Assembly: GCA_003507445.1 (NCBI GenBank)
Contig: DNVR01000008.1
Span: forward strand, 29,083 to 93,082
Reading direction: 5' to 3'
DNA length: 64,000 nucleotides
From: Candidatus Moraniibacteriota bacterium
GTDB taxonomy: Bacteria; Patescibacteriota; Minisyncoccia; Moranbacterales; GWC2-37-73
A program made the translations under genes and the position numbers. Below, in pieces: positions 1,258-39,200 of this stretch. The notes under the pieces are model-generated. The model searched no databases, was not told where the DNA came from, and was given only the letters and a program-made list of their open reading frames with translations. Position 1 is the first letter of the stretch. Each line of letters opens with the position of its first letter.

Positions 1258-1389
1258 TTTAATCATTGGAGATTCATAAGAAATATGCTATATTTTATTC
1301 ATAAATCAGTAATGGTTGTATTATACTAAAAGTTCGCATAACCTGCAACTTTCAGCACACTATCAAACATTAAGTTCGCATATAAACGA

Positions 1390-1591
1390 GTTCATCTGAA
1401 ATGTCGCTCCGCTACGCTCGCTCCATTTCAGATGAACGCGCGCGCCTGCCGTCGCTGTCATCTGCTGTGTTGCTTCTCCCTACGGTCGTGAGCAAACACA
1501 TCAGATAACAGCGCCTATCCGAAATTTCCCTCGCCCCGACTGCTGTCGGGACTCGTGAAACATCGGATCAGGCGCGCGCGTTCTGCGAAAT
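1390..1591. repeat. GC-rich structured repeat element, copy A (full core ~202 bp)
   Basis: Near-identical to 2791..2992. Contains nested stems: GTTCATCTGAAATG...CATTTCAGATGAAC, CGCGCGCGCCTG...CAGGCGCGCGCG and CCCGAC-TGCT-GTCGGG. GC ~58% in an AT-rich background. Confidence 0.8.
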
Positions 1592-1640
1592 AGCGAAAAA
1601 CATACCTTTATTAATAATTTTTTCAAGCCCTTTTGAAATA

Positions 1641-1676
1641 AAAAAATCCCCCGGTCAATCACCAGGGGACGGCAGT
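1641..1676 (-). terminator. rho-independent terminator for the minus-strand small ORF
   Basis: Hairpin CCCCTGGTGATTGACCGGGG followed by a T-run on the minus strand, immediately after the TGA stop at 1677..1679. Confidence 0.55.
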
Positions 1677-1843
1677 CATCTTTTCAGATTTTTCATCACT
1701 GCGTAGAATGAAGCTGCTGCTCCGCCAACCATTACAAGTGCGAGTAATCCGATTGCAATGGGCTCGTAAATCTTCGGGTAGGATATCGTGGAAACCGTAA
1801 AGAGTGCCGTCCCTACGCCAAAAACAAAAGCATCCCATTTCAT
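1677..1843 (-). CDS. small hydrophobic membrane protein (55 aa), not in supplied ORF track
   Basis: ATG preceded by AAGGAGG with 6-nt spacing. Translation MKWDAFVFGVGTALFTVSTISYPKIYEPIAIGLLALVMVGGAAASFYAVMKNLKR. Terminator downstream. Local GC ~50%. Confidence 0.45.
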
Positions 1844-2077
1844 AAAGAACCTCCTTGAGAGTTGATATTACAACACTTCAATGACTTCCTATCCTACACA
1901 CGAAGTATTGAAATGTCAAGTGGCAATATTTCAAAAGGGCTTGAAAAAATTGGGCTCAAAATAAGGAGTGTATGTTTTTCCGCTACATCGCAGAACAAGC
2001 AATATCTGGCTCAAAAGTCTTGCCTAATATATAATTAAATAAAGGAGTGCAAGATTTTTTCGACCCAAATTTGCCCT

Positions 2078-2192
2078 TCGCTACGCTCGATCAAACTTCA
2101 GATATTGCTAGACGTTCATCTGAAATTTTCCTCGCCCCGACTGCTGTCGGGACTCGTGAAACATCGGATCAGGCGCGCGCGTTAGATGAAAT
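2078..2192. repeat. GC-rich structured repeat element, copy B (internal-deletion derivative)
   Basis: Has the 5' arm (TTCGCTACGCTCGATCAAACTTCAGATATTGCTAGAC), GTTCATCTGAAAT, then jumps to the 3' part TTCCTCGCCCCGACTGCTGTCGGGACTCGTGAAACATCGGATCAGGCGCGCGCGTT. Confidence 0.7.
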
Positions 2193-2255
2193 ACCCAGAA
2201 ATTTCTTTTTTTATTTTAATATTTTTTTGCAATTCATAATTCTTAATACAAACCC

Positions 2256-2630
2256 ATGTTTAATCCAAATCGTCCACCATCAGAACAATTAGAAAATAAA
2301 ATGTTCACTATCGAGCTTAAGGATAATGAGTCCATTGTCGTTAAGGAAATGGAACCAGGTGTATTTAAAATAGTAGATAATAGTATAACAAAAAAAGATG
2401 AGCATCAGATGGCGGGCGAAACATTCATAGGCTTCGGAGAGTGGGATGATGAGGTTGAAGATTTAGATAGTCGTAGTAGCGATGCACGATATTTTGATAT
2501 GTCGGAACATCTCAGATGGGAAGATGTTGAGTTTATTGGTGATGATGAAATAAAGGCGCCATCACTAGATCGGCTGAAGCAAGCGTTGCAACACATAAAA
2601 ATACTTCCTTATAATCCCGAAGATATGTAA
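2256..2630 (+). CDS. hypothetical acidic protein
   Basis: 124-aa ORF between repeat copies. No recognisable motif. Confidence 0.3.
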   Translation: MFNPNRPPSEQLENKMFTIELKDNESIVVKEMEPGVFKIVDNSITKKDEHQMAGETFIGFGEWDDEVEDLDSRSSDARYFDMSEHLRWEDVEFIGDDEIKAPSLDRLKQALQHIKILPYNPEDM

Positions 2631-2748
2631 TTGCAAAATACATTAAGGAAAAAGAAATTTCTGGGTACATCACATAACAAGGCACATGCGGTTCAAAAAT
2701 TTTGCATCTTTTAAAATTAGAGGTGTGCAAAATTTTCTCTCCCAAATT

Positions 2749-2992
2749 TTTTTCGGCTATGCCTTCAGAAAAACTTCAGATATGCCTAACGTTCATCTGA
2801 AATGTCGCTCCGCTACGCTCGCTCCATTTCAGATGAACGCGCGCGCCTGCCGTCGCTGTCATCTGCTGTGTTGCTTCTCCCTACGGTCGTGAGCAAACAC
2901 ATCAGATAACAGCGCCTATCCGAAATTTCCCTCGCCCCGACTGCTGTCGGGACTCGTGAAACATCGGATCAGGCGCGCGCGTTGTGCGAAAT
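2749..2992. repeat. GC-rich structured repeat element, copy C (full, includes 5' arm)
   Basis: 2791..2992 nearly identical to 1390..1591. The 5' arm CCCAAATTTTTTTCGGCTATGCC...CTTCAGATATGCCTAAC is shared with copies B and D. Confidence 0.8.
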
Positions 2993-3443
2993 GCATGTTT
3001 TCCTTTTGGGCTAACGCCCTGGCTCAAAAAAGAATCCGATTTTGTTTTTTCTTTATTTTAAAGAGGGGTTAAAAAGGTGTTTTTCTGCTCTTTGGGGAGC
3101 AGAAAAATTATACAAAAATTATACATATTGATTTTATTTATAAGCCATGTTAACTTATTATTATCAGTTAAGAATTTGTTTGTAGATTATGTTCTTTGTA
3201 TCAATTGATGTTATCCCACAGAAAGGAGGAAACTGCTTATGCGGAAGCTTATTGTGCTGTGCGCAGTTGTAGCTCTGGCTTAGAGACCATACCGATTTGG
3301 CCGGCGTCGTCGCCCGGCCGCCAGAGAAACATTCGCCCCCGATTCAAGAAACGGAAGAACCGTCATGGTGTAACCGTGGATTCTTGAATTGGCATAACCG
3401 ATAAACCGCCAACAAATGGATATACCCCCAAGGAGGTAATACC

Positions 3444-3542
3444 ATGACGACCAGCCGTGGACGACCTGTTTTCGCTCAGATGATCAAGGGAGAAGAAGCT
3501 GCCGGCAAGGTGAAGAAAGCCGAAGGTACAGCACTGGTCTAG
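3444..3542 (+). CDS. micro-ORF (32 aa) with consensus SD inside a GC-rich island
   Basis: AAGGAGG-7nt-ATG. Encodes MTTSRGRPVFAQMIKGEEAAGKVKKAEGTALV. Strong terminator 80 nt downstream. GC ~55%. Confidence 0.25.
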   Translation: MTTSRGRPVFAQMIKGEEAAGKVKKAEGTALV

Positions 3543-3622
3543 GACCGTGAAGTGGCCGGCCTCGTCCTTCCGGCCAAAATGGGGAAAGATAATCGTCAAC
3601 CGGACATCATGTCCATAACCTG

Positions 3623-3658
3623 ACCGCTCTCGGCATTGCTGAGAGCGGGTCTTTTTTT
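3623..3658 (+). terminator. rho-independent terminator
   Basis: ACCGCTCTC-GGCATTGCT-GAGAGCGGGT followed by TTTTTTT. Confidence 0.7.
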
Positions 3659-3863
3659 ATTTGCCACCCCAATAAATACCACGTATAATTACCAATAAGG
3701 AGTATTGGCTCCAGGCCATTCACCCTTAGCCCCTCTTCCCAAAACAAAGACGAAATTCAATTAATTCATTACAGAAATGCTATTCCTCTGCTGAGGAATG
3801 AAAAGAAAAAACAAACATCGCACAACAACGAGTATCCGGTTTCGACTTTTTCGAAAGTCTTCA

Positions 3864-3948
3864 CCCAAATTTTTCTTTCGCTATGCTTGGTCAAACTTCA
3901 GATACTGCTAGACGTTCATCTGAAATGTCGCTCCGCTACGCGCGTTCG
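3864..3948. repeat. GC-rich structured repeat element, copy D (large internal deletion)
   Basis: 5' arm, GTTCATCTGAAATGTCGCTCCGCTACG, then CGCGTT. Shares its 5' arm with copies B and C. Confidence 0.6.
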
Positions 3949-4052
3949 GAAAAAAACTAAAAATTTCCTCTCTATTTTGAAAAGAATTTTTTGGCAATTT
4001 TGTTCGGTCGAACTAATTTTAAACAATTCAAAAAATTAATTTTAAAAACAAA

Positions 4053-6416: not shown

Positions 6417-7337
6417 ATGTCTTGGATTTTTGTTGCAGTAAGCGCATATTTTTTGGGAGCCTTTGCGGTCCTGATGGACAAGTTTCTTTTGGGCTCCAAA
6501 AGAATTTCTTCTCCGCAAGTGTACACTTTTTACGTGGGAATTTTTGGATTGGGCGCATTTCTTTTTGCGCCGTTTGGTTTTGATGTTCCTTCTGCTTGGC
6601 AGATCACAATAAGTTTTATTTCGGGAGCAATTTATATTGGCGGAATTTTTGCGCTCAATCTTTCAATCAACAAAGCTGAAGCAAGCAGGGTAACACCTGT
6701 TGTTTTTTCGGTTGTGCCGATTGCGACATATTTGATATCCTTTGTTTTTAATGATGAAAAACTGACACTCATTCAGATTGGTGGAGTCGCATTGCTTATA
6801 ATCGGTGGACTGCTCATTTCTTTTGACTTGCCGCTTAAATTGAACAAGAGAAAATTTTTTGTTGGCTTTTATTTTTCTTGTTTGGCTGGAGTGCTTTTGG
6901 CAATTTCATATGTGATGTTTAAGATGGTTTATGTTGAGCAAACATTTTTAAATGGATTTATGTGGACCAGAGTTGGCGGTTTTGCGGCTGCACTTTTGCT
7001 TTTGATTGTTCCGACTTGGCGCAAGGCTATTTTTAAAAGTTTTTCTCATGCTAAAAAACCTTCAAAGGAACATATTGGCACGGGAGGAATATTCATTGCA
7101 AATAAGATCCTGGGCGGAACAAGTTCTATCTTGCTCAATAAGGCTTTTCAGTTGGGAAGTGTGACATTGGTCAATTCGATGGTATCGCTCCAATATGTGT
7201 TTGTGCTTATTCTCGTGGCAATAGCAGCCAAAAAACATCCGAAAGTTTTTGAAGAAAAGTTGTTGTTTTGGGATTGGGCTCAAAAAGTTGTTGCGATATT
7301 AATCATTGCAATAGGGATGGTTTTAATTTCAAGATAG
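6417..7337 (+). CDS. polytopic membrane protein, EamA/DMT-superfamily-like transporter
   Basis: 306 aa with ~10 hydrophobic helices in two halves. No ATP-binding motif. Confidence 0.45.
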   Translation: MSWIFVAVSAYFLGAFAVLMDKFLLGSKRISSPQVYTFYVGIFGLGAFLFAPFGFDVPSAWQITISFISGAIYIGGIFALNLSINKAEASRVTPVVFSVVPIATYLISFVFNDEKLTLIQIGGVALLIIGGLLISFDLPLKLNKRKFFVGFYFSCLAGVLLAISYVMFKMVYVEQTFLNGFMWTRVGGFAAALLLLIVPTWRKAIFKSFSHAKKPSKEHIGTGGIFIANKILGGTSSILLNKAFQLGSVTLVNSMVSLQYVFVLILVAIAAKKHPKVFEEKLLFWDWAQKVVAILIIAIGMVLISR

Positions 7338-7343
7338 AAATTC

Positions 7344-7462
7344 TGTCATTCCGGACTTGATCCGGAATCCAGGTTTTACGCTTAGTGATTTTTATTGCGA
7401 TAATTACAGTTTTTATACGGAATTGCAGAACCTGGATTCCCGCCTTCGCGGGAATGACAAAA
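7344..7462. repeat. MITE-like palindromic element, copy 1 (TIR TGTCATTCC...GGAATGACAA)
   Basis: ATTCCGGACTTGATCCGGAAT and ATTCCCGCCTTCGCGGGAAT palindromes (ATTCCC-N8-GGGAAT form). Second copy at 21297..21382. Confidence 0.75.
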
Positions 7463-8663: not shown

Positions 8664-9881
8664 ATGAATATAAATTATTCATTGCATAAATACTTCTTGA
8701 TTGTTATGTTTGTTGTTTGTGCAAGCGCAGTTGTGATTTTTGTAAAACAAAGAGCAAATGCTTCTGACAGTATTTCAGTTGCTGTCCCGATAAACGGTGT
8801 TTGTTCGGGAATAAATGAAACAAAGGTTGACAGTAAGCCAACAAGCGGCTTGTGTAGCGTAGGAACAGCCTCTGATGTGATAGAAAATAGTGATGGTTGG
8901 GCTTGGAAATGTCTGGGTATAAATGGAGGAGGAAGTGCTTACTGCAAAGTTATTAAATATATCGCCCCAGTTGCGACAACTGTTTCTCCAGTTGCGACAA
9001 CGACAACGGCACCCACAGTGCTTAATACGGCCCCTGTTACAACTACCGTGGACCGTGTGACGAATGTTGTGGATGAAATTGAACCAAAAATTACAGCGCC
9101 AACAACCAGCTCAGTGTCGACAACTTCTTTGCCAACTACGATTTCAAAAACAACTCAAACAACTTCTGTCTCAGATGATTCTGAAAAAAACACCGAGGAA
9201 GAAAGGCAGCGAGAAAGGCAAATTTCCGAAACAGTGATAAAACCAGAAATCACTGATAATGTTGTCATAGCTCCGCCTGAACAGCAGCAAATTGATGAAA
9301 AACAAGTTGTTCTTCCTCAGGAGGAAAAAGAGATGGTTAGAAGTCAAATAATAAAGCCACCTGTTATTGTTGCAGCAAAAAATCTTGTACAAAAAAATAA
9401 TCCAAAAATTGCAGGCGAGACTAATGCTGTTTTGAAAGTTGAAAAAGTGGCTTTAGTGGAGAAAAATAATGGAGTCAAACAACTTGAATTGTCTGGAAAA
9501 TCAGAGCCTAATGCGATTGTAACTTTGTACATATTTAGTAAGGATCCTATTGTTATTAGTATTAAGGCAGACGTTGATGGTTTGTGGAATTATGAATTGG
9601 ACAAGGAATTGGCAGACGGACAACATGAGGTTTATGTGGCTGTGGCAGATGATGAAGGTAAGATTGTTTCCAAGAGTGAGCCTATTGCTTTCATTAAAAC
9701 TGCTCAAGCTGCGGATATGATTCCATTTTCAGAATTCCAAGAGAATGAGTCGCCTGTAAAAAACTCTGCTCAGCAATTTGTTTTAATAGCTATAATCGTA
9801 ATGTCAGTATGTTTGGCATTGGCATTGGCTGCAATTGGATTTTTAACTCGCAAAGAAAGTTTTAATGAGGGAATTAATTAA
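8664..9881 (+). CDS. surface protein with Thr/Val-rich linker, Ig-like domain and C-terminal TM anchor
   Basis: Signal peptide. Low-complexity PVATTVSPVATTTTAPT region. C-terminal hydrophobic helix FVLIAIIVMSVCLALALAAIGFL. Confidence 0.55.
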   Translation: MNINYSLHKYFLIVMFVVCASAVVIFVKQRANASDSISVAVPINGVCSGINETKVDSKPTSGLCSVGTASDVIENSDGWAWKCLGINGGGSAYCKVIKYIAPVATTVSPVATTTTAPTVLNTAPVTTTVDRVTNVVDEIEPKITAPTTSSVSTTSLPTTISKTTQTTSVSDDSEKNTEEERQRERQISETVIKPEITDNVVIAPPEQQQIDEKQVVLPQEEKEMVRSQIIKPPVIVAAKNLVQKNNPKIAGETNAVLKVEKVALVEKNNGVKQLELSGKSEPNAIVTLYIFSKDPIVISIKADVDGLWNYELDKELADGQHEVYVAVADDEGKIVSKSEPIAFIKTAQAADMIPFSEFQENESPVKNSAQQFVLIAIIVMSVCLALALAAIGFLTRKESFNEGIN

Positions 9882-12021: not shown

Positions 12022-12060
12022 TAAAATAAAAAATATAGGACTTACGCTTTTTCTCAACTA

Positions 12061-12141
12061 TTTCTTTTTTGGCACGCTTTTGGATAAATACTCAATATCC
12101 AAAAGCTCAAAGAGTTGCTGTCGCCAACTATTGGCCAAAAA
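12061..12141 (+). repeat. ~80-bp intergenic repeat (family 3), copy 1
   Basis: TTGGCACGCTTTTGGATAAATACTCAATATCCAAAAGCTCAAAGAGTTGCTGTCGCCAACTATTGGCCAAAAA. ~93% identical to 25725..25805. Contains a 10-bp perfect IR CTTTTGGATA/TATCCAAAAG. Confidence 0.8.
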
Positions 12142-12185
12142 AGAAATGTTTCGAAACGCGTAACTTCTGAAATAATTAAATCATT

Positions 12186-12374
12186 ATGAATACTGTAATC
12201 ATTTCCGTGCTTGTTATTCTCATTATCGTTGTCCTTACTGTGGCAATAGGTTTGATTCGCTTTACGTTCAATGATTTTTTGGAAAAAGTTGTCAAAAAAA
12301 CCTTGTGGCTCTGGCTTCCTTTTCATGCGCTTAAAAGATTGAGCGGAGAGTTTCGAAAAAAATATATGAAATAA
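12186..12374 (+). CDS. small hydrophobic protein (62 aa)
   Basis: Single TM-like segment VIISVLVILIIVVLTVAIGLI. Ends at a bidirectional terminator. Confidence 0.3.
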   Translation: MNTVIISVLVILIIVVLTVAIGLIRFTFNDFLEKVVKKTLWLWLPFHALKRLSGEFRKKYMK

Positions 12375-13238: not shown

Positions 13239-13350
13239 TTGAATTTCGAATTTCGAATTTCGAATTTCGATTGAATTGTGAATTGATTCAAAATTTAATC
13301 ATTGAAATATTGGAAATTGATTCAAAATTTAAAATTTAAAATTTAAAATT
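13239..13350. repeat. heptamer-array element: (TCGAATT)x4 - ~50-bp spacer - (AAAATTT)x4
   Basis: Fills the infC stop to rpmI start interval exactly. Same architecture as the in-frame insertion in recG (50867..50967). Confidence 0.8.
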
Positions 13351-14040: not shown

Positions 14041-14452
14041 TGTATATATGGTGGAGTTGATGGGAATTGCACCCATGTCCAAAATTGACAATCCAAAATC
14101 CTCTACAAGTTTAGTTTATTTTTTCTCACCGAAGCGAGTGCGACTAATTAGAGTAGAGAATAAACAAAACCTCTAAATGCCGTTTTCAGAATTATTTCGC
14201 ATTTTGTGTCCAAAAAACCACAAAACACTATTCTCATGTTTGACACCGAGGTCTGCTTACGAGAAATCAGCAGTTCGATGGCTTCGAGCCTAAGCTAAAG
14301 CAGGTGAAAAACCAGCAAATGCTTGCGCAAATGTAGCTTTCGCCTTTGATATGAAGTTTGCACTTATATCTTCGCCACACTTTTTACGATACAGCAGCGG
14401 TGATCGACTTGCATATTTTGAAAAGTACAACCTGTCGAAACTAAACAACCCC
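14041..14452 (-). ncRNA. ssrA: tmRNA (ssrA)
   Basis: Minus-strand 5' GGGGTTGTTTAGTTTCGACAGG matches the tmRNA 5' consensus. 3' end reads ...GGACATGGGTGCAATTCCCATCAACTCCACCA with encoded CCA. Acceptor pairs 7/7 including the G3-U wobble. Adjacent to smpB. Confidence 0.75.
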
Positions 14453-14629
14453 CGGCCGCAACACTCTGTAAGGGTTGAGTGCGGGGAATGTCAATTTATT
14501 TTCGTGTGCGGAATTTCCAAATCCCAATTTCCAATTTCCAATAAAAATTTAAATTACAAAATGTCCAATAATAAACAATACCTTTGGCATTAAAAGTTGG
14601 AAATTTTGTTAGAAATTAGATATTGGTAA

Positions 14630-15100
14630 TTAGGAATTTTTCATGGCTCTTCCTATTTCTCTCTCACTCTCTCTTTTGGTGATGTCTGAGCGCTTGTCGT
14701 GAGCCTTTTTTCCGCGCGCTACAGCGAATTCCAACTTAACTAGGCGTCTCTTAGTATACACACGAAGAGGTACTAATGTCAAGCCTTTTACGTGTAATTT
14801 TCCAATCAGAGACTTGATTTCTGACTTTTTGACCAAAAGCTTGCGAGAGCGTGTCGGATCGTAGGCTATTTTAAAGCCAGCGAAGGGATAATGTGAGATG
14901 GTGGCGTTAGTAAGGTATAATTCTGAATCGTGAATCGTGACAAAACTGCCCTTGAGGCTTATGTGCCCCATTTTTGTTGATTTTGTTTCCGCCCCAGACA
15001 GCACTAAACCAGCCTCATATTTGTCGAGAAGCTCGTAGTCAAAATGCGCTCTTTTGTTGGTTGCTAATGTTGGCATATTCCTATAATGCCTTAAAATCAA
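14630..15100 (-). CDS. smpB: SsrA-binding protein SmpB
   Basis: 156 aa; LVLSGAETKSTKMGHISLKGSFV and YDPTRSRKLLVKKSEI typical of SmpB. Confidence 0.85.
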   Translation of the reverse strand: MILRHYRNMPTLATNKRAHFDYELLDKYEAGLVLSGAETKSTKMGHISLKGSFVTIHDSELYLTNATISHYPFAGFKIAYDPTRSRKLLVKKSEIKSLIGKLHVKGLTLVPLRVYTKRRLVKLEFAVARGKKAHDKRSDITKRESEREIGRAMKNS

Positions 15101-21296: not shown

Positions 21297-21382
21297 TGTC
21301 ATTCCGGACTTGATCCGGAATCTCGTCACGTACGCAAGTCCGGCTCCGTCCTGGATTCCCGTTTTCACGGGAATGACAAAAA
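21297..21382. repeat. MITE-like palindromic element, copy 2
   Basis: TGTCATTCCGGACTTGATCCGGAATC...CTGGATTCCCGTTTTCACGGGAATGACAAAA. Same termini as 7344..7462 but lacks a central segment. Confidence 0.75.
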
Positions 21383-25502: not shown

Positions 25503-25531
25503 TTGACAAAAATACTTGTTGGGTGTATAAT
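25503..25531 (+). promoter_or_regulatory. consensus sigma70-type promoter (TTGACA-17-TATAAT)
   Basis: TTGACA at 25503..25508, 17-nt spacer, TATAAT at 25526..25531. No ORF for ~550 bp downstream until rnj. Confidence 0.6.
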
Positions 25532-25724
25532 TAATCTAATAAGTAATACTTCTTGAATTTTACCTTGTTTAAAGCTTTTTTTCTTCGAAACAAACAAACA
25601 AGTGCTCAAATTGACAAAAAGTCTCTTTATTAAGGGGTTTTTACTATTGTATTTAAAAATCAAATCTTTATATAAGTAAGTTATCGTTTCTTTAAATTTG
25701 GAACTTTTGCAATTGCTCGAATAT

Positions 25725-25805
25725 TTTCTTTTTGGCACGCTTTTGGATAAATACTCATTATCCAAAAGCTCAAAGAGTCGCTGTCGCCGACTATTGGCCA
25801 AAAAT
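25725..25805 (+). repeat. ~80-bp intergenic repeat (family 3), copy 2
   Basis: ~93% identical to 12061..12141, same orientation. Confidence 0.8.
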
Positions 25806-26081
25806 AAAATATTCTCACATTGCGAAAGTGAATGTTTAAACTCTGAATTTGTAATAATTGTGTAACGTGCTTTTGTAAGTTCACCCAGTCAAATTGCTTA
25901 CGCACCGCCTTTGGCGGATTTGACGGGGTAAACCCTGTTAAATAATTTTAATTTTTTTAAGAAAATTAAAATTAAGATTTGAGTCCTAAATTGAATTTAC
26001 GGGGTGTACTAAATTAAAAAATTAATATAATAAGTTTGTTTCTCTTATTTGTAGAGACTCAAATCTTATTTAATAGGGTAA

Positions 26082-27933: not shown

Positions 27934-27963
27934 AAAAACCAGTCAGTTTGACTGGTTTTTTTG
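27934..27963 (+). terminator. rho-independent terminator
   Basis: AAAAACCAGTCA-GTT-TGACTGGTTTTT. Confidence 0.7.
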
Positions 27964-27970
27964 TTAGTGC

Positions 27971-28090
27971 TTTTTTTGTTTTGCCTGCTTCCTTTCTCGG
28001 CACGCTTCGCAATCGAAGAACTATGATTGCTCGCTAAGAGTTCGCTGTCGCTCTCTGCTACCCTCAAAAGAAAACAGGCAAAACAAAAAA
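27971..28090. repeat. long hairpin element related to repeat family 3
   Basis: Outer 15-bp IR TTTTGTTTTGCCTG/CAGGCAAAACAAAA enclosing GGCACGCTT + palindrome CTTCGCAATCGAAG + AGAGTTCGCTGTCGC. Shares the GGCACGCTT and GCTGTCGC blocks with family 3. Confidence 0.55.
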
Positions 28091-28288
28091 CAAATCTTTA
28101 TTTTTTTGAACCACAATCTTGGTATAACCAGATTTTTTTGAATAGATAAAAACATCTTGATTGATATAGGAAACACTGATAATATCTATCTTTTTGGGGT
28201 TGGCAAGATATTTGAAAATATGCTATAATTTGATAAGTTAACAGATGATGTTTTTAGTGAAAAAAATTATTCAGTCATTGCTTTTATT

Positions 28289-29736: not shown

Positions 29737-29785
29737 GGGTTAATAATTTCTAATTTCCAATTTCTAATTTCCAACAAAAAATCAA

Positions 29786-30166
29786 ATGTCAAATGATAAA
29801 AGGATATATGATTTGGAGGAACGTACGGAAGTATTTGGTGAGAATATTATTGAATTTTGCAAAATAATTCCAAAAACAGCATTAACAACCGTATTGACGA
29901 ATCAACTTTTGCGATCAGGGACTAGCGTGGGAGCAAATTATTGCGAAGCGGATTGTGCTGAATCAAGAAAAGATTTTGAACATAAATTGGGAATTTGTAA
30001 AAAGGAAGCCAAGGAAACAAAACATTGGCTTAGGATGATTGCAAAAGCTGCACCTGAAATTAAAAGTGAAGCGCAAATATTATGGAAAGAATCAAATGAG
30101 CTGCAGTTAATATTTATTGCGATTATTAATAAGTCAAAAATAAATGAAGCAGAGAAGAAAAGATAA
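29786..30166 (+). CDS. four-helix-bundle protein (23S rRNA intervening-sequence protein family)
   Basis: LRSGTSVGANYCEA ... KDFEHKLGICKKEAKETKHWL matches the conserved core of the family. Confidence 0.65.
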   Translation: MSNDKRIYDLEERTEVFGENIIEFCKIIPKTALTTVLTNQLLRSGTSVGANYCEADCAESRKDFEHKLGICKKEAKETKHWLRMIAKAAPEIKSEAQILWKESNELQLIFIAIINKSKINEAEKKR

Positions 30167-30241
30167 GTTTGGAAATTATATATTGAAAATTTTGTTAGAA
30201 ATTGGATATTAGAAATTAGTAATTAAACGAAGTATTCTCTG

Positions 30242-33200
30242 ATGGGTGTAATCGGAATAAGGAAAAATATAAAAAGCAAAAATTGGGGACTGAAAATTAT
30301 TTCAGCGTTTTTTGCTTTGAGTTTCTTTTTTGTGGCTGTCGCTTCAGCTGAAGTCGCTCCAACAATCTCTGAAATTTCTCCAAATAATGGGTTGCCAGAG
30401 GGTGGAACAAGTGTGACGATAACTGGAACAAATTTTTCTCAAAGTACAATAGATGCAAACACGAAATTGTTGATTCAAGGTAACGGCACAGGTGCAAGCT
30501 TCGTTGATTCTGAAATAACCCCAAAGACAGTTACCGCTGTTGGAAATGTCACCCAATCTTCTGCGCAGTCAAAATTTGGAGGATCAAGTGTTTATCTTGA
30601 TGGAAATGGCGATTATTTGTCTTTAGCGGACAGCGAGGATTGGGCTTTTGGCACAGGAGATTTCACAATGGATATGTGGGTTAAAACAACCGAATCTGAT
30701 GGTTTCTTGCTTTCTCAGATGCCTTCAAATGGTGCAGCGGGAGTTGCTAGTTTTTATTCAGTTGTGAGTGTGGATGGAAAAGTTATTTTTGTTCCTGATT
30801 ATGTTTCCTACCCAAGTCATCACACTATAACATCAACAGTTTCTGTTAATGATGATGCTTGGCATCACATCGCATTTGTTAGGAACGGCGCATATATAAG
30901 AATGTATATTGATGGAACAGAAAGTGGCACAGCTTTAAATATGGGCGCTGGTTTTACTATGACAAATTCTGCTGAACTTTTGAAAATAGGTAGCATTGGG
31001 CTTCCAGAAAATTACAGTCCTTATGGTGGGTATATTGATGAAATCCGTGTTTCCAAGGGGATTGCTCGCTGGACCAGCAATTTTACACCTCCATCTTCTG
31101 AAAATCATTTGCAATCAACATTAACAATCGGTGGAACTTCTGCCACAAATATTGCAGTTACAAGCCCAACTACAATTACCGCCACAACTCCTGCTCACGC
31201 TGCGGGTGCAGCTGATGTAGTGGTTACAAATTACGACGGTCAATCTGCAACACTGACAAGCGGATATACTTTCAATGCTGCTCCAACCATTTCTGCAGGA
31301 GCTGTTACTCCAGCGAGTGCAAAACTTACGGGTGGCGACACAATTACAATTACAGGATCTGGTTTTTATGGAACTCCAAGTGTAACTCTTGGTGGAACAG
31401 CTGCGACTGCTGTTACAGTAGTAAATCCAACCACAATCACCGCGACAACCCCAGCACATTCTGTTGGTGCTGTTGATGTTGTGATTACAAATGAAGATTC
31501 GCAAAGCGCGACACTTGCAAACGGATTTACATTCACGGAACTTCCACCGACAGTTTCAGGAATTTCTCCAAGTGCTGGTTCACCTGCTGGCGGAACAAGT
31601 GTGACGATAAGTGGAACTAATTTTTTGGTTGGAGATGTTGATACATACACTAAAGTGTTGCTGCATGGTGATGGCACGGGAGCAAGCTTTGTTGATTCTG
31701 AATTAATCCCAAAAGTAGTTACAGCAGTTGGCAATGCTACTCAATCTGCTGCGCAATCTAAATTTGGAGGGAAAAGTATGTATTTTGATGGGAGTGGTGA
31801 TTATCTTGATTTGGCAACCTCTGCTGATTTTGGTCTCGGCACAGGTGATTTTACTGTGGATTGTTGGGTAAATTTCTCCACTGTAACTAATGCAATATTT
31901 GTGAATACCACTAGTTCAGCAAATGGATTCTTTTTTCAATACTATAATAATGCTTTTACTTTTGGTCAAAATAATGTAGGTTTTGTAATTAATACACCTT
32001 GGACGCCTTCTATAAACACTTGGTATCACATAGCAGTGACAAGGGCGAGTGGCACAACCAAAGGCTTTATTAATGGAACGCAAATAGCATCTGTTAGTGA
32101 TAATTATAATTACGCTAACAATATATTGCGCGTAGGTGAAAGCGTTAATGGTTATCTAGATGAAGTCCGTGTTTCAAAAGGGATTGCTCGTTGGACTAGT
32201 AATTTTACACCGCCGTCTGCTGAATATCACTCACAACCAATGTTAACTTTTGGCGGAATCTATGCTACAAATGTCGCAGTCACAAACCCAACTACAATTA
32301 CCGCTACAACTCCTGCTCACACTGCAGGTGCAACTGATGTTGTCGTCACAAATTACGATGGACAAAGTGCAACACTAACAAGTGGTTACACTTTCAATCC
32401 TGCGCCAACAATTTCTGCTGGAGCAGTTTCTCCAGCCAGTGCCTTGAAGACAGGAGGCGACACAATTACAATCACGGGAACAGGATTTTATGGCACACCT
32501 ACCGTAACTTTGGGAGGAACAGCTGCGACTGCTGTTACAGTAGTAAATCCAACCACAATCACCGCGACAACCCCAGCACATTCTGTTGGTGCTGTTGATG
32601 TTGTGATTACAAATGAAGATTCGCAAAGCGCGACACTTGCAAACGGATTTACATTTACAGAACTTCCATCAACAGTTGGATCAATTTCTCCAAATAATGG
32701 AACTGTTGCAGGTGGAACCAATGTGACGATTACGGGGACGAATTTTATTGAAAACAGCGCAACAGGTGGAACGATTACAACCTCTGGAGAATATACAGTG
32801 CATACATTTACAGGAAGTGGAACGTTTGTGCCGAATAATGAGATGGATGTTGAGGTTTTGGTTGTTGCTGGCGGAGGTGGAGGTGGAGGTGGAGAACCTA
32901 GTGCTGGCGATTCTGGTGGTGGTGGAGGAGCTGGAGGATACAGAACTGCAAATCTTACAATATCATCAGAATCTCATAATGTGACTGTGGGTGCTGGAGG
33001 CGCAGGTGCAGCAGGAACATCTTTACCAGGAAATAAAGGGAATGATTCAATTTTTGATTCCATAACTGCAGCAGGTGGAGGTGCTGGTGGAATAGAGGGC
33101 GGAAGTGGTGGAGCTGGAGGATCTGGAGGTGGAGCTGGAGGTCTCTGTTCAGTTCCAGTTTCAGGAGGAGCAGGTAATACGCCAGCAACGACACCAAGTC

Positions 33201-36200
33201 AAGGAAATAATGGAGGATTTACACCCGGGACAACTTGTTCTGGGCGAGCTGGTTCTGGCGGTGGTGGTGCTGGCGGTGTTGGAGGTGCAGGAACCACTGT
33301 TAGTGGCGCTGGTGGTGCGGGCGTAGCAAGTGATATTACCGGAACTTCTATAACAAGAGCTGTTGGTGGTGCTGGCGGACAAAGCGGCAGTGGAACAGGT
33401 ACAGCAGGAGCTGCAAACACTGGAAATGGTGGAAAAGGAGGAGGAATAAGTTCTGCTGGTGGTGCAGGAGGAAGCGGTGTTGTTATTGTTAGATATTTGA
33501 CCCATAAACCAGTAGTTACCATCGGTGGAACTTCTGCTACAAATGTCGCAGTCACAAGCCCAACCACCATCACTGCCACAACTCCCGCACATACCGCAGG
33601 CACAGCTGATGTGGTGGTTACGAATTATGACGGACAATCTGCAACGCTGACAAATGGATACACTTTCAATCCTGCGCCAACAATTTCTGCAGGAGCAGTT
33701 TCTCCAGCCAGTGCAAAACTTACTGGAGGCGATACAATCACAATCACTGGAACGGGATTTTATGGCACACCTACCGTAACTCTTGGAGGCACAGCTGCGA
33801 CTGCTGTTACAGTAGTAAATCCAACAACAATCACTGCGACAACTCCCGCACATTCTGTTGGCGCTGTTGATGTTGTTATTACAAATGAAGATTCTCAATC
33901 CGCAACTCTTACCAATGGATTCACTTTCACAGAACTTCCACCAACACTAAGTTCAATTTCTCCTGATAACGGTCCAGTAGCAGGGGGAACTAATGTGACG
34001 ATAAGTGGTACGAATTTTGTCGCTGGGTCTGTAAGTGCAATTGGCGGAACAATAACAACTGATGGTGATTATACGGTACACACATTTACAGGTAGTGGAA
34101 CATTTACAGCTGATAGTGATATGCCTGTGGAGGTTCTGGTTGTTGCTGGTGGTGGAGGTGGCGCAGGAATGGCTGAATCTGGTGGAGGTGGAGGAGGTGG
34201 AGTGCAACATCATACTTCATGGCCAATAAATGCTGGTGCAAATTATAGTGTTGTAGTTGGAAATGGTGGTTTAGGTGCTACAAGTGTTTCAAATGGTGCA
34301 AATGGTGCAAATTCATCTTTTGGCGAATTGATTGCTAATGGAGGTGGTGGAGGAGGTGGATTTATCGGTTTAACTCCAGGATCTGGAGGTTCAGGCGGTG
34401 GATCTACGCGAGGAGTTGCTGCAGGATTGAGTAATCAAATTTCAATTAATGGTTCAAATTCTTACGGAAATCCTGGAGGTGTTGGATGGCCAAGTGGATA
34501 TACGGCTGGAGGTGGTGGAGGTGCTGGTTCTGCGGGAGGAAATGCTACTAGTGGAGTGTATCCAGATGGAGGTGTTGGAGGTGCTGGAAGAGCATTTGAT
34601 ATTTCAGGAACATCAACATATTATGCTGGAGGTGGTGGAGGAATTTATGCTTATGGTGGTATTGGTGGTGGAGGCAATGGTAATATGGGAACAGTTGAAT
34701 CTTATAATGGTGTGGCTAATACTGGAGGTGGAGGAGGTGGAGGAGCTAATGTAGTTGGAGGAGATGGTGGTTCTGGAATTGTAATAGTGAGATATTTGAC
34801 AAAGGCTAAATTGCCAACCGTAATAATCGATGGAATTGCAGCTACAAATGTTTCACTTGTGAACCCAACCACAATAACAGCAACCACTCCTGCTCACACT
34901 GCAGGTGCAACTGATGTTGTCGTCACAAATTACGATGGACAAAGTGCAACACTAACAAGTGCGTTTGAATATCACAATTGGATTACGGCAGGAACGTATA
35001 CCTCAACAGTTAAACCTCTGGCTAATGTTGGATTTGGAAACATTGATTGGGTTGCTGGCACGCCTGCTAATACTAATTTGACAATGCGAGTAAAATCTTG
35101 CACCTCTGCTGATTGCAGCGACAAACCAAGTTGGTCTGGATGCGACTTGGCTGCGCTGGACAATGGTACCGATATTTCCGGTAAGGGTTGTGTGGTGGAT
35201 GGCCAAGGTTATGTTCAATATCAAGCATATCTTTCAACTGATTCAAATTCTGCTCAGCCATATCTCGACAGCGTCACAATTTCAACTCAACCAGAATATT
35301 CCAAAACATTTTTAAGTCTCATTTCTTCTCCTTTTGATACGGGAAATGAAAGCAACAGTGTTCAAAAAATTTCTTGGACTGCAACAAATGACAACTTGGC
35401 AACTCAGGGACAAGTGGCAATACAAATTCGAACTGCACCGGATAATGGCGGAATTCCTGATTTTACAAATTCAGTTTGGTGTGGGCCGACTGATTGCAGC
35501 GGCACAACAAATTCAACAACAGCTTTTGCAATCAGTTATTACACTGACAAAACAGGGGCTCTTGCGATAAATGCAATTAACAAGGATCTTAGTGATGATC
35601 GTTGGATTCAATATGCAACATTCTTGAAATCAGCTGATGGAACTTTGACTCCGACATTGACTGATGTGACGATGCAATATGCATATAACACTCCACCAGC
35701 AATTACAATTGACAGCAACCCAATATTTTTAAAGCAAAATGCAGATGGAACTTTCTCTGTTCCATACACCTTAAGTGAAACTTATGATGATTTTGGTAAC
35801 ATTCCTCACGGAACAGCTGGTTCTCCGATTAAAGCACTTCTTTTTTATCAACCGAAAAATGACATCACAATTGAAGAACTTACAAATGTTCGAACAGGAA
35901 TTGTCACCCTCAATAATCCAAGCAATCTTCCAATTCCATCGCAAGGTTCAATGCTGATTGGCGATGAGTTGATGACTTTTGATTCAGTTGGAGCAACTGG
36001 AAATCAAAGAAACATCACAGCGCGTGGAATTGCTTTTGCAACTTCATATCCAACCACGGCTGCTGCACACTTGGCAAATTCCGCAGTATTTTTTGCAACT
36101 TCAGCTTCGATTCAAACAATCGATACGCTTGTTGAGACGGGCATAGTTGGCGCTGAGGCATCCGTATCAAATATGTTCTCTTGGAATCCAAGAACTGATG

Positions 36201-39200
36201 TCAATACAAATTTGAATGGTAACAAACTTTCAGACGTGGTTTTCAAAGTTGCTGCCAACGACGCTGATTCAACCAACATTAATAATATCGGACAAAGCAG
36301 TGCGACCACTTCGCAAGTTCTGGATTTGGAATCTCCTTTGATTAAAAATGTCACTTCATCTTCGGCTGATGGGAAATATAACGCTGGAAAAAATGTGGAC
36401 GTCACGATTAATTTTGCTGACAGTCTTGGCAACGCAAAGAATGTGACTTCAACAGGCGCTGTCACGATAGTTTTGGAAACTGGCGTTAATGATTATGAAT
36501 GCTTGATCCCATCTATCACAAACGCATCAAGCGCATCTTGCACATATCAAGTCCAAACAGGCGATGTTAGCGAAGATCTAACTGCAATTTCTGTAAGCGG
36601 AACAATTAAAGATCAATTCCAAAACACTCTTTCAAACTTTGCGATTCCAGCAGGACAAAACATTGCTGATTCAAAAGCTATTGTTATCGATACAATTTCT
36701 CCAATCATTTCAGGTGTGTCGCCAGCAGCAAGTGCGTTTGTAAATTCAATCACTAGCGCTAATGGTGGCTCTGATATTTCGTATGAAGCGACAGAACTTT
36801 TAAAAACAGGATCATATGTTAAATTCACTTCAACTTCGGGAACAGATTTGAACACCGAATATCTTTGCACTTTGCAGGGAACAGCACTTGAGGTTGGCGT
36901 GCACAGTGGTTTTGAAATCAAACAAGATGCAAACAACTGCACTGAAGTTCAAAGCGCGCTTCAAAGTGGTTCTGTTTATACAATGACAATTCACGCCATT
37001 GACGAAGCTGACAATGCCAGTGACCAAACAATTGCAAATATTAATTTTGACACAACCAATCCGACAGCTAGCGTAACTTCCCCATCAAACGATGCCTTTT
37101 TCAACAGCATTACAACTGGCTCAGATGTTTCATATAATCTTGATGAACAGTTGCAAGCAGGCAGTTATCTTAAATTCACTAGAACTGCTGGTAGCGCTGA
37201 TGGATCTTCTCCGCGAACTTGTAATTTGACAGGGACTGAGCTTGAAGAAGGTGATCATAATAATGTGGACTTGAACGCTGTCTGTGGAGGATTTGCTTTA
37301 GTAGATGGTGCAGTTTATTCAATTGATCTTTTCGCTAAGGACTTGGCTGGAAATGAGGCAAATGCAACACAAAAAACAAATGTTACTTTTGACCAAACTG
37401 CTCCAACACTCAACTCATTTACTTCAGACAAGGCCAACAACACGCCAGCTACAGCTTATGGCGCAGGGGAAGTGATTGATATTAAGGCGGTTTACAGCGA
37501 ATCATTGGCAGTTGGCTCAACAATGACAGTTAGATTGGAAAACACAGCAACGCCCGCTGTTGATGTTGTGCTCGATCAAATTGCTGGAAATGTGCTTTCG
37601 GGAACATTTGTTGTGGACGGTCCGCGTAAGGGATATGACACGGCTGATTTGACTTTGCGATCAATTGTTTCTCAAAATGCTATCGATCAAGCTGGCAATG
37701 TTAAAACTGATTCGGCGATACCGTTTGGACAAAACTTAGGAGACAACAAAGACATTGCGATTGATACAGGAACTCCAATTCTGGAAAGTTTTGCTGCTCA
37801 AAAACTTCCTGAGAATTCAACAAGCGGTTCTTACAAAGCAGGAACGGAAATAAAAATAACCGCGACATATTCCAAACCAATTGCCTCTGGCGAAATCACG
37901 CTGCATCTTAATACTCAAAATGGAGCTGAAGACATTGAAAACATTGTATTGTCAACAATTTCAGGTTCTACAATTTTCGGCACACACACTGTGCAAAATC
38001 TGGACAACGCTGAAGACTTGAAAGTTTTTGCCATCACTGCTCAAAGCGTTACTGACTTTAAAGGTAATGTGCTTGATAGAACAGGAACAATGACTGAATA
38101 TGACGCATATTTCACTTCGCTTGTTGGCGAAAACATTTCTGCTGTTACAAATATTTCCAATTTCAAAATTGACACAACTGCGCCAACACTTGGAGCAACG
38201 CCAATTGCCATTGCAAATGTCGCAGGAAAAACTAGCAGTGCAACCCCAGTGATAACATTGTCTGCAACTGATAATGATATTTCTAAAGCAATCTTCTCAT
38301 TGGATGGGGGAACTTCTTGGTGTGCTCCAATTGATTATGGTGCAACAATAAACACATTTGACATTACATCTAGTGCTTGCGGTGGTTCTGCTTCCAACGA
38401 AGTAAAAACTGTCACAGTCAAGTTCAGCGATGTTGCTGGCAATGAGAGTGCAACTTCCAGCGCTTCAGTTGAATATGATAATTTGAAACCACAGTTGCAA
38501 ACAATTACTGCTGATGTGGTCGGCGGAATCTATGGACCAAATTCAGTTATTAAAATCACTGCAACATATGACGAAGACATTGCCAGTGGAACATTAGTTG
38601 TCAATCTTAACAATGGAAAGCAGCTTACGATTAATACTGTCGAAACGGCCAGAACACTGGTGGCAAATTATACTGTTGGCGCAACTATTAGTGGCGAAGA
38701 CACAAGCGCGCTTCGTGTAGCTGCAATTGTTTCGCAAGCTGTTTCTGATTCAGCTGCCAACACGCAAGACGGAACCAGTCTGGCTGGAATAACTGCCAAC
38801 ATCGACACTGATAAAACAATTATAATTGATACTACTGCGCCAAGCGCTGCTGCGCCAGACGGCTCGATTGTTGCTGACAGGGCAAGCGAAGAAAACAAAA
38901 TAAAAATTACAATTTCTCCTGATGATTGGGGTGTGGCAAAGGATGAAATGACCGCTCAAATTGCGCTGATGGACACGGTGGTTGCTTGCAACTTTACTGG
39001 CGCAAATGCAGCAGTCTTCAACAGTGAATTTCCAAAAACATTTACATATGATGACCTTGCAGGCGCAGTGAAAAAAGTTTGTGTTAAATTGACTGACAAG
39101 GCGGGGAACATTTCTTCTGATTTCAGTGTGGTCACTCCAAACACTCCTGAAAATTTCGTGTATACTGATCTTACCAGCGCGACGTTTACAGGTGCGATTT

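Follow-up and report, generated by a model that had tools for sequence, protein, structure and literature searches.

What is the conserved motif that recurs between genes in this stretch of 64,000 nucleotides from a Candidatus Moraniibacteriota bacterium (contig DNVR01000008.1), which we refer to in its full length as the window? A preliminary description, made from the letters of the window alone, had reported an intergenic element of about 80 bp in two near-identical copies (here A and B) with a diverged relative inside a hairpin (C), and had suggested a regulator binding site or a small RNA. Our analysis points elsewhere. The motif is probably the core of a new Moranbacteria family of MITEs (miniature mobile elements with inverted repeats), that is, of a non-autonomous DNA transposon, with a core structured as a three-way junction.

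The near-identity of A and B, formerly put at about 93%, was confirmed: the 81-nt copies differ at 5 of 81 positions (~94% identity), and similarity extends beyond this core over about 120 nt at 85%. Both sequences are present as described, but the second interval was one base off and is corrected here to 25724–25804. The start GGCACGC lies at 12071 in copy A and at 25734 in copy B, an offset of 13663. The perfect inverted repeat, given before as 10 bp, is a dyad of 10–11 bp, GCTTTTGGATA/TATCCAAAAGC. The stretches GGCACGCTT and (A)AGAGTT(C)GCTGTCGC are common to C and to A and B; copy C holds GGCACGCTT, a different small palindrome (GCAATC/GATTGC) and AGAGTTCGCTGTCGC within an outer stem of 16–17 bp, and it is a true relative, with a covariance-model score of 66 bits. 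The word GCTGTCGC occurs four times in the window against 0.71 expected, three of the four being copies A, B and C. Scoring of the whole window with the covariance model, filters off, returned exactly three copies at 124, 112 and 66 bits, and the next, unrelated match reached 17 bits. Folding compared with shuffled sequences gave z values of −6.8 (A), −8.0 (B) and −3.0 (C). The similarity of the copies far exceeds what a chance origin would give, and the earlier claim of a genuine conserved, repeated and structured intergenic element is supported.

The reported 80 bp or so are, however, only the core of the unit, which measures about 134 nt and has flanking 5-bp direct repeats. The words TTTCTTTTTTGGC and GCCAAAAAAGAAA on the two sides of the A and B cores are inverted repeats that had been overlooked. 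Since they are mutually inverted, A and B are embedded in a long hairpin as well, like C. The boundaries of copy A were taken from an alignment of about 20 full-length copies and from one pair of filled and empty sites (loci L024 and L021). Type-1 units are 127–134 nt long and type-2 units about 215 nt, and no open reading frame (ORF) is conserved across copies. The type-1 termini are imperfect inverted repeats of ~36–38 bp (TAGGACTTACGC.../...GCGTAACTTCTG) with sharp ends common to the copies. Arm-versus-arm alignment gave 27–40 Watson-Crick pairs per copy; in copy A, the arms 12036–12073 and 12134–12169 form 30 Watson-Crick pairs and 2 G·T pairs, with 4 other mismatches.

Evidence for mobility came from the flanks and from comparison of sites. 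In type-1 copies, the 5 nt before TAGGAC and the 5 nt after ...TTCTG matched to 78%, compared with 47% in shuffled pairings (z = 7.2). The target-site duplication was perfect (5/5) in 9 of 22 distinct type-1 copies and reached 4/5 in another 8; the null mean for perfect duplications was 0.8, and none of 2000 shuffles attained the observed value. The element is present in L024, whereas L021 has only TTTATAT, a 7-nt spacer, between the stop and the next start codon, and AATTT occurs once at this empty site and on both sides of the element in L024. The site of copy A is empty in L007. At the site where L007 carries the element, the window has a different hairpin element and L018 nothing; the site in L035 is taken up in its ortholog L001 by another kind of hairpin element, the flanks being ~95% identical up to the junctions; and the site in L036 is without element in L008. 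One clear orthologous insertion, L009/L016, is common to two species. Small GC-rich hairpins are in turn nested in copies of the element, in the P2 loop (L020, 714–877), at the P3–P1 junction (L024, L033, L034) and in a P1 arm (L034), the helices being named as below. Of the five features by which a MITE is defined, four are present: the element is short and non-coding, it has terminal inverted repeats, it is flanked by a duplication of fixed length (5 bp, type 1), and its dispersed copies show insertion polymorphism.

The preliminary description had asked for further copies and for conserved placement in related genomes. Dozens of copies were found in Moranbacteria and Parcubacteria; conserved placement relative to genes was not seen, the sites being filled, empty or differently occupied. 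Pattern and covariance-model searches together yielded about 85 copies among the matches listed. A strict-pattern scan with one genome per species found 36 loci, all in metagenome-assembled genomes of Moranbacteria or Parcubacteria, to which GW2011_GWE2_36_40 contributes at least 14 copies, GWC1_36_108 at least 13 and GWD2_38_11 at least 6. The covariance model R1 recovered 44 copies in 334 kb (loci and window). A looser pattern applied to metagenome contigs matched at least 116 loci, in which R1 identified about 50 true copies, this number including some duplicates of genome loci, and the remaining loci were chance matches. The single match in a scan of viral contigs was also due to chance, as it lay inside a GC-rich coding region without hairpin. 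All real copies are in Moranbacteria or Parcubacteria genomes or in metagenome contigs; all are intergenic, in both orientations, and as far as sampled the family is specific to Moranbacteria and related Parcubacteria of the candidate phyla radiation (CPR). Near-identical type-2 copies occur in GW2011_GWE2_36_40 and GWC1_36_108. Copies often fill an entire spacer, the median gap including the element being ~258 nt. Two local arrangements were also seen: in L129, two copies lie head-to-head about 40 nt apart (2198–2306, plus strand, and 2345–2452, minus strand), and in L141 three copies lie within 1 kb (8816–9796), two of them bracketing one gene. A literature search on MITEs or repeats in CPR bacteria or Moranbacteria returned nothing relevant, and the family appears to be undescribed.

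The type-1 layout reads TAGGACTTACGCATTTTCTCAACTATTTCTTTTTT-GGC-AC-P2-TCAAAG-P3-ATTG-GCC-AAAAAAGAAATGTTTCGAAACGCGTAACTTCTG, where P2 is GCTTTTGGATA..loop..TATCCAAAAGC and P3 is AGTYGC-TGTC-G(C)CRACT. The terminal arms form helix P1 and enclose a core that folds, as a single strand, into a three-way junction of P1, P2 and P3. P2 is a hairpin closed by GC/GC with a purine-rich loop ending in ...CUAU, and P3 is a hairpin of 6 bp whose loop reads UGUC or UCUC. Every subfamily folds in this manner, with z from −3 to −11. The subfamilies differ in the sequence of all three helices and retain the pairing throughout. At least nine differently compensated P3 stems were found across copies, five of the six pairs being changed on both sides, and in one copy the top of P1 has GAC/GTC instead of GGC/GCC. 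Two-sided changes affected 21 of 31 pairs (131 cells against 45 ± 8 in shuffles; slid controls were much lower), and none of 500 shuffles reached the observed value on any of five measures of covariation, computed on a pooled model-based alignment that was itself fitted to the tested structure. The covariation analysis that had been advised thus revealed compensatory changes in all three helices, on an alignment fitted to that structure. Among unpaired positions, those conserved are GGC-AC-GC, the GCU that follows P2, the UGUC/UCUC loop with its C-G closing pair in P3, and the terminal ...CUAU of the P2 loop. The long hairpins contain conserved mismatched blocks (TCTCA opposite TTCGA), and either strand of the element can fold. 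Type-2 copies of GWE2_36_40 have the outer termini GG(G)TCACACGCAAYACATGGTT.../...AACCATRTATTGCGTATGATCC, their outer ends also being given as GG(G)TCACACGCAAYACATGG..., and cores and arms are combined in chimeras such as L020, which has a type-1 core in type-2-like arms. An alternative pairing of GGCACGC with GCUGUCGCC, obtained with RNAalifold on a plain MAFFT alignment, was rejected, since copies with another P3 (L027b, L097, L095, L073 etc.) keep the local P3 and cannot form it.

Insertion of the element takes place in short AT-rich spacers between genes, with duplication of 5 bp of the target. We propose that the element may be mobilised in trans by a putative DDE-type transposase making 5-bp staggered cuts. 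The nested palindromes would be kept at the DNA level and not as a strand-specific RNA. Their upkeep might reflect a folded or cruciform form needed in cis for mobilisation, or else template-switch repair of quasi-palindromes, an established process of correction that does not require selection. Effects on neighbouring genes, for example through a long hairpin in read-through transcripts, would then be a by-product.

Several observations weigh against a MITE. No ORF-bearing element bounded by the same termini, as expected of an autonomous partner, was found in 1.19 Mb of loci. No multi-copy ORF lies near the copies, and ten ORFs of the window were without transposase domain. Orphan termini were absent except for one interrupted copy, and the sole pairs of inverted termini 0.4–6 kb apart, considered as a candidate autonomous parent, proved to be independent MITEs on either side of a gene. 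Comparison of the subfamilies shows stronger conservation in the core than at the termini, the reverse of what ends recognised by a transposase would predict, and compensatory changes occur even in the internal helices P2 and P3, where a neutral MITE interior is not expected to keep pairing. The flanking repeats of type-2 copies look longer, 6–8 nt, than the 5 bp of type 1. Finally, type-1 identity is 94.5% within genomes and 94.4% between genomes or species, whereas four-fold degenerate sites of the flanking genes are only 58–69% identical (GWD2_38_11 compared with GWC1_36_108), so that recent horizontal spread, recombination or selection is required. Recent exchange between co-occurring species is sufficient to explain this cross-species identity, although selection could also have acted. 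The L009/L016 insertion lies within a tract of 95–98% identity; the likeness of this pair may reflect recombination, which the local high identity around the element suggests, as well as purifying selection.

The pairing of all three helices, kept through different sequences, could also be that of a structured non-coding RNA (a multi-copy small RNA, a cis-acting RNA element or a new self-cleaving ribozyme) with a functional junction, in which case mobility would be the spread of an RNA gene. The conserved unpaired positions, the folding z-scores and a core more conserved than the arms are in line with this idea, as are the P3 variants UUG/CAA, UUG/CGA and UCG/CGA, all of which are paired on the minus strand via a G·U intermediate. 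A strand-specific RNA would, however, show many G·U and few A·C pairs; the modelled pairs included 76 G·U and 82 A·C cells, favouring neither strand, and in the arm-versus-arm alignments the two were likewise equally common. Orientation relative to the neighbouring genes was mixed (15 same/same, 10 opposite/opposite, 8 mixed), and an enlarged set that contains some duplicates gave 28 against 15 (p = 0.07). The parity of G·U and A·C and the mixed orientation indicate that pairing is conserved as nested inverted repeats at the DNA level. No conserved promoter or intrinsic terminator was detected in or adjoining the element; on either strand a U-rich arm precedes the core and an A-rich arm follows it, an order that does not suit an intrinsic terminator. 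A search of Rfam 15 found nothing real at gathering thresholds in the whole window or at E ≤ 5–10 in the three copy regions; none of 4227 families matched even at E = 5–10, and hairpin-type matches far below threshold (miRNA precursors, Phe_leader) were all that appeared. Target-site duplications and insertion polymorphism count against an RNA as well. The small RNA suggested before is thus disfavoured, and we leave a structured RNA a small, if appreciable, chance. A more radical version holds that the junction GGC-AC-P2-GCU..-P3 (UGUC loop)-..UUG-GCC is a functional single-stranded machine, be it a new self-cleaving ribozyme, some other RNA with a catalytic or recognition role, or a structure of folded DNA that a transposase or recombinase, as yet undescribed, would recognise. 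It would explain both the conservation of the core above the termini and the 94% identity across species with saturated synonymous sites, and would amount to a new kind of mobile element in CPR bacteria, but we hold it to be unlikely.

Unlikely, too, is an intergenic structural repeat maintained by the host in the manner of REP/BIME, ERIC or BOX sequences, with a role in mRNA processing or stability, insulation or the nucleoid, and spread mainly by recombination. The 94% identity across species with near-saturated synonymous sites, the orthologous L009/L016 pair in its high-identity tract, which suggests recombinational exchange, the chimeric cores and arms (e.g. L020) and the filling of whole spacers, including those within operons, would all suit such a repeat. 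The precise 5-bp duplications and the clean filled/empty pair nevertheless point to transposition, and unconserved placement with different families at the same site argues against a site-specific host function. A hairpin moved as a single strand by an HUH or tyrosine enzyme, such as REP/REPIN with a RAYT (REP-associated tyrosine transposase), a palindrome derived from IS200/IS605 or an integron attC-like site, would account for the conservation of structure rather than sequence, for the long imperfect hairpins with conserved mismatched blocks and for folding on either strand. Such systems make no target-site duplication, however, and here its length is fixed at 5 bp; no RAYT- or TnpA-like multi-copy ORF was seen near the copies. 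The attC arrangement is RYYYAAC...GTTRRRY; the ends here, 5'-CTTACGC...GCGTAAC-3', have the opposite order, and the copies sit among housekeeping genes and not in cassette arrays. We regard this explanation as very improbable. Least credible of all is the sigma-54-type promoter or dyad operator for a DNA-binding regulator that was put forward at the outset. TGGCACG is indeed invariant in nearly all copies and is followed by a dyad, and TGGCAC-N5-TTGG resembles the sigma-54 consensus without matching it, as had been stated. As a promoter, it is no better than background: TGGCAC-N5-TTGCW is matched with 2 mismatches, like about 60 other sites of the window, the GC at −12 is absent, and the would-be −12 element falls inside P2, where the sequence varies between subfamilies. 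An operator fares no better, since the P2 dyad is entirely different between subfamilies (GCTTTTGGATA, GCAATC, TTGGCC, TTGATC, GCTCTTGATTA) and pairing alone is kept. Only in about half of the cases does the downstream gene share the strand of the motif, many copies lie directly against the 3' ends of genes or occupy operon spacers, and the neighbouring genes, which were to be recorded downstream, include none that is conserved. A MITE remains our preferred explanation.

Table 1. Parts of the three window copies and sequence variants of the helices across the family.
Feature	Position	Strand	Basis or remark
Copy A, left target-site duplication AAATA	12031–12035		same 5-mer at both element ends
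Copy A, full-length type-1 element, 134 nt, TAGGACTTACGC...GCGTAACTTCTG	12036–12169	+	covariance model, 123.8 bits
Copy A, left terminal inverted repeat (P1 5' arm), 38 nt	12036–12073	+	arm pairing, fold
Copy A, helix P2, GCTTTTGGATA - 9-nt loop - TATCCAAAAGC (the dyad described before)	12076–12106	+	fold; repeat search
Copy A, helix P3, AGTTGC-TGTC-G(C)CAACT, conserved TGTC loop closed by C-G	12113–12129	+	fold
Copy A, right terminal inverted repeat (P1 3' arm)	12134–12169	+	fold, alignment, arm pairing
Copy A, right target-site duplication AAATA	12170–12174		matches left 5-mer
Copy B, left candidate target-site duplication TTAAA (or TTTAAA from 25691)	25692–25696		symmetric distance from covariance-model match
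Copy B, type-1 core with different compensated outer stem, TTTGGAACTTTTGCAATTGCTCGAATATTTTC.../...AAAATATTCTCACATTGCGAAAGTGAATG	25697–25835	+	covariance model, 111.5 bits; boundaries ~1 nt
Copy B, GGC	25734–25736	+	
Copy B, helix P2	25739–25769	+	
Copy B, helix P3	25776–25792	+	
Copy B, right candidate target-site duplication TTAAA	25836–25840		symmetric with left word
Copy C, type-2 relative	27972–28090	+	covariance model, 66.4 bits
Copy C, outer stem	27972–27987/28074–28090	+	
Copy C, GGCA	27999–28002	+	
Copy C, helix P2	28009–28014/28025–28030	+	
Copy C, helix P3 (loop TGTC)	28037–28056	+	
Copy C, decayed outer right terminus of type-2 element, TTTTTTGAACCACAATCTTGGTATAACC	28101–28131	+	type-2 flank comparison; intact copies TTTTTGAAACCATGTATTGCGTATGATCC
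Outer-stem types: type-1(i) (copy A); TTGCAATTGCTCGAATA.../...TATTCTCACATTGC (copy B); TTTGCCTGTTTCC (copy C)			
P2 variants: GCTTTTGGATA, GCTTTTGGAAA, GCTTTTGAAT, GCTCTTGATTA, TTGGCC, TTGATC, GCAATC, GCAGTC			
P3 variants: AGTTGC/GCCAACT, AGCCGC/GCCGGCT, AGCCCC/GGCGGCT, AGCTGC/GCATGCT, AGCTGC/GCCAGCT, AGAAAC/GTTTCT, AGCTAC/GTAGCT, TTGATTGC/GCAATCAA, AATTGC/GCAATT, AGTTTGC/GCAAACT			

The window has 36% GC and compact genes mostly on the plus strand, and parts of it are syntenic, at 76–89% nucleotide identity, with contigs of Candidatus Moranbacteria GW2011_GWE2_36_40 and Parcubacteria GW2011_GWD2_38_11. Copy A lies 3' of a HAD-hydrolase gene, and copies B and C stand on either side of the RNase J gene (rnj). 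The left terminus of C is missing, and the rnj terminator hairpin (~27934–27965) is found in its place. A composite transposon carrying rnj between B and C was considered and dismissed: a duplication of its own flanks B, and C has decayed. A link of copy A to the small ORF at 12186–12374, after the manner of type I toxins, was likewise dropped, as the ORF is kept in L007 and L018 without the adjoining element. Upstream of rnj, a perfect sigma-70 consensus (TTGACA-17-TATAAT) is present at 25503–25531, about 550 nt before the RNase J start at 26082, and a GC-rich hairpin, GTCAAATTGC...GGATTTGAC(GGGG), at 25888–25924, about 50 nt downstream of copy B. Copy B and this hairpin intervene between the consensus and the start codon, so that the rnj leader, if transcribed from this promoter, would be long and consist largely of inserted repeats.

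The hairpin at 25888–25924 looks like a third small mobile hairpin family, and a related module, CCCCGTCAAAT...ATTTGACGGGG, is inserted in the P2 loop of the L020 copy (714–877). A second hairpin-repeat family occurs at 7345–7458 and 21298–21377, and also in L001 (~7110–7250) and in the L004 and L029 flanks. The family is built from a pair of modules in inverted orientation, GTCATTCC-(GC-rich hairpin)-GGAATC(CAGG), four of which are found in the window against 0.02 expected, and its member in L001 lies at the exact site that the element studied here occupies in the ortholog L035.

Other repeats are scattered over the window. At 1380–3950, GC-rich nested-hairpin repeats form a cluster within sequence that is AT-rich apart from them. 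A 202-nt block is repeated there at 100% identity (1390–1591 and 2791–2992), an 84-nt unit (ATCCGAAATTTCCCTCGCCCCGACTGCTGTCGGGACTCG...GGCGCGCGCG) is present three times and a 71-nt unit twice, and the ORFs of this region had no Pfam match. A pair of 28-nt inverted repeats (TTAATAATTTCTAATTTCCAATTTCTAA, 29740–29767 and 30195–30222, 93% complementary) surrounds a 126-aa ORF (29786–30166) annotated as PF05635 (23S_rRNA_IVP) on a near-identical contig. A direct copy of the repeat lies at 14589–14638, and the repeat-flanked segment 29740–30222 may be another small mobile cassette. Short tandem repeats of the GAATTTC/GAAATTC type (GAATTTCGAATTTCGAATTTCGAAT) were noted at 13241–13342 and 50932–50967, with a perfectly complementary 25-nt copy 37 kb away and two tandem 34-nt units at 13275–13342. 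Rfam, not ARAGORN, reported a tmRNA gene at 14049–14452 (minus strand, 130 bits), which adjoins smpB at 14630–15100 (minus strand). Finally, a giant ORF of 3703 aa (30242–41353, plus strand) has internal repeats of ~1.1–1.3 kb and Gly-rich tracts of the GGTGGAGG type; its 3' end (41168–41458) recurs with 84% identity at 46923–47213, where the next large ORF (42888–47108, plus strand) ends.

The genomes of CPR bacteria measure ~1 Mb, their intergenic spacers are tiny, and mobile DNA is usually said to be scarce in them. If the element is what we propose, one MITE family and at least three other hairpin-repeat families colonise such spacers, and can even split a 7-nt stop-to-start gap in an operon. 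The element could be used to trace recent exchange of DNA among co-occurring species of Moranbacteria. It also carries a warning for annotation, as conserved intergenic motifs in Moranbacteria genomes may be mobile repeats and not regulatory sites. An ordinary MITE and nothing more would be useful for annotation and unsurprising; the small, well-defined structured core with its unusual conservation can be tested for transposition or for an RNA role.

Among known systems, the element is close to bacterial MITEs such as Correia/NEMIS of Neisseria, RUP of Streptococcus pneumoniae and MITEAba12. Like them, it falls within ~100–200 bp, carries no ORF, has terminal inverted repeats and a duplication of fixed length, lies between genes in dozens of copies that face either way, differs in its insertions between relatives and would form a long hairpin if transcribed. 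Correia and RUP elements duplicate TA, whereas the Moranbacteria element duplicates 5 bp. It further differs in that no cognate insertion sequence or transposase was found in 1.19 Mb of loci and the window, in that the termini diverge between subfamilies while the internal three-way-junction core is best conserved, with compensatory changes, and in its host, a CPR bacterium with a genome of ~1 Mb. TIMEs, the MITEs derived from the Tn3 family, have 38-bp terminal repeats, AT-rich target duplications of 5 bp (sometimes 6 bp) and a non-autonomous lifestyle, and those described measure 262 bp and above (PMC4133298). The Moranbacteria element resembles them in the length of its terminal repeats, the AT-rich 5-bp duplication and the non-autonomous lifestyle, but is about half their length. 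The type-2 termini GGGTCACACGC recall the outer 12 nt (~11 nt) of the Tn3 repeat, whose outer sequence is GGGGTCTGACGC and whose hallmarks are a terminal GGGG and an inner ...ACGCTAAG (...TAAG). The type-2 ends GG(G)TCACACGC are only partly similar to this consensus, and type-1 copies end in TAGG/CAGA (TAGGAC/CAGAAG) with inner ends TTTTTTGGC. A Tn3-family transposase was found neither in 1.19 Mb of loci nor among ten ORFs of the window. Membership in the Tn3 family was rejected, since the similarity does not go beyond the outer ~11 nt of type-2 copies and the hallmarks of the family are absent; membership among the TIMEs is not supported. The ERIC/IRU and REP/REPIN sequences of proteobacteria are likewise imperfect palindromic intergenic repeats, of ~100–130 nt; they too occur in both orientations, keep their structure more than would be expected and are highly similar across species. 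REP/REPIN elements depend on a RAYT and are not known to have a target-site duplication, unlike the element described here, with its 5-bp duplication and no RAYT seen near the copies. What sets it apart from both groups is its core, which is an asymmetric three-way junction and not a simple palindrome.

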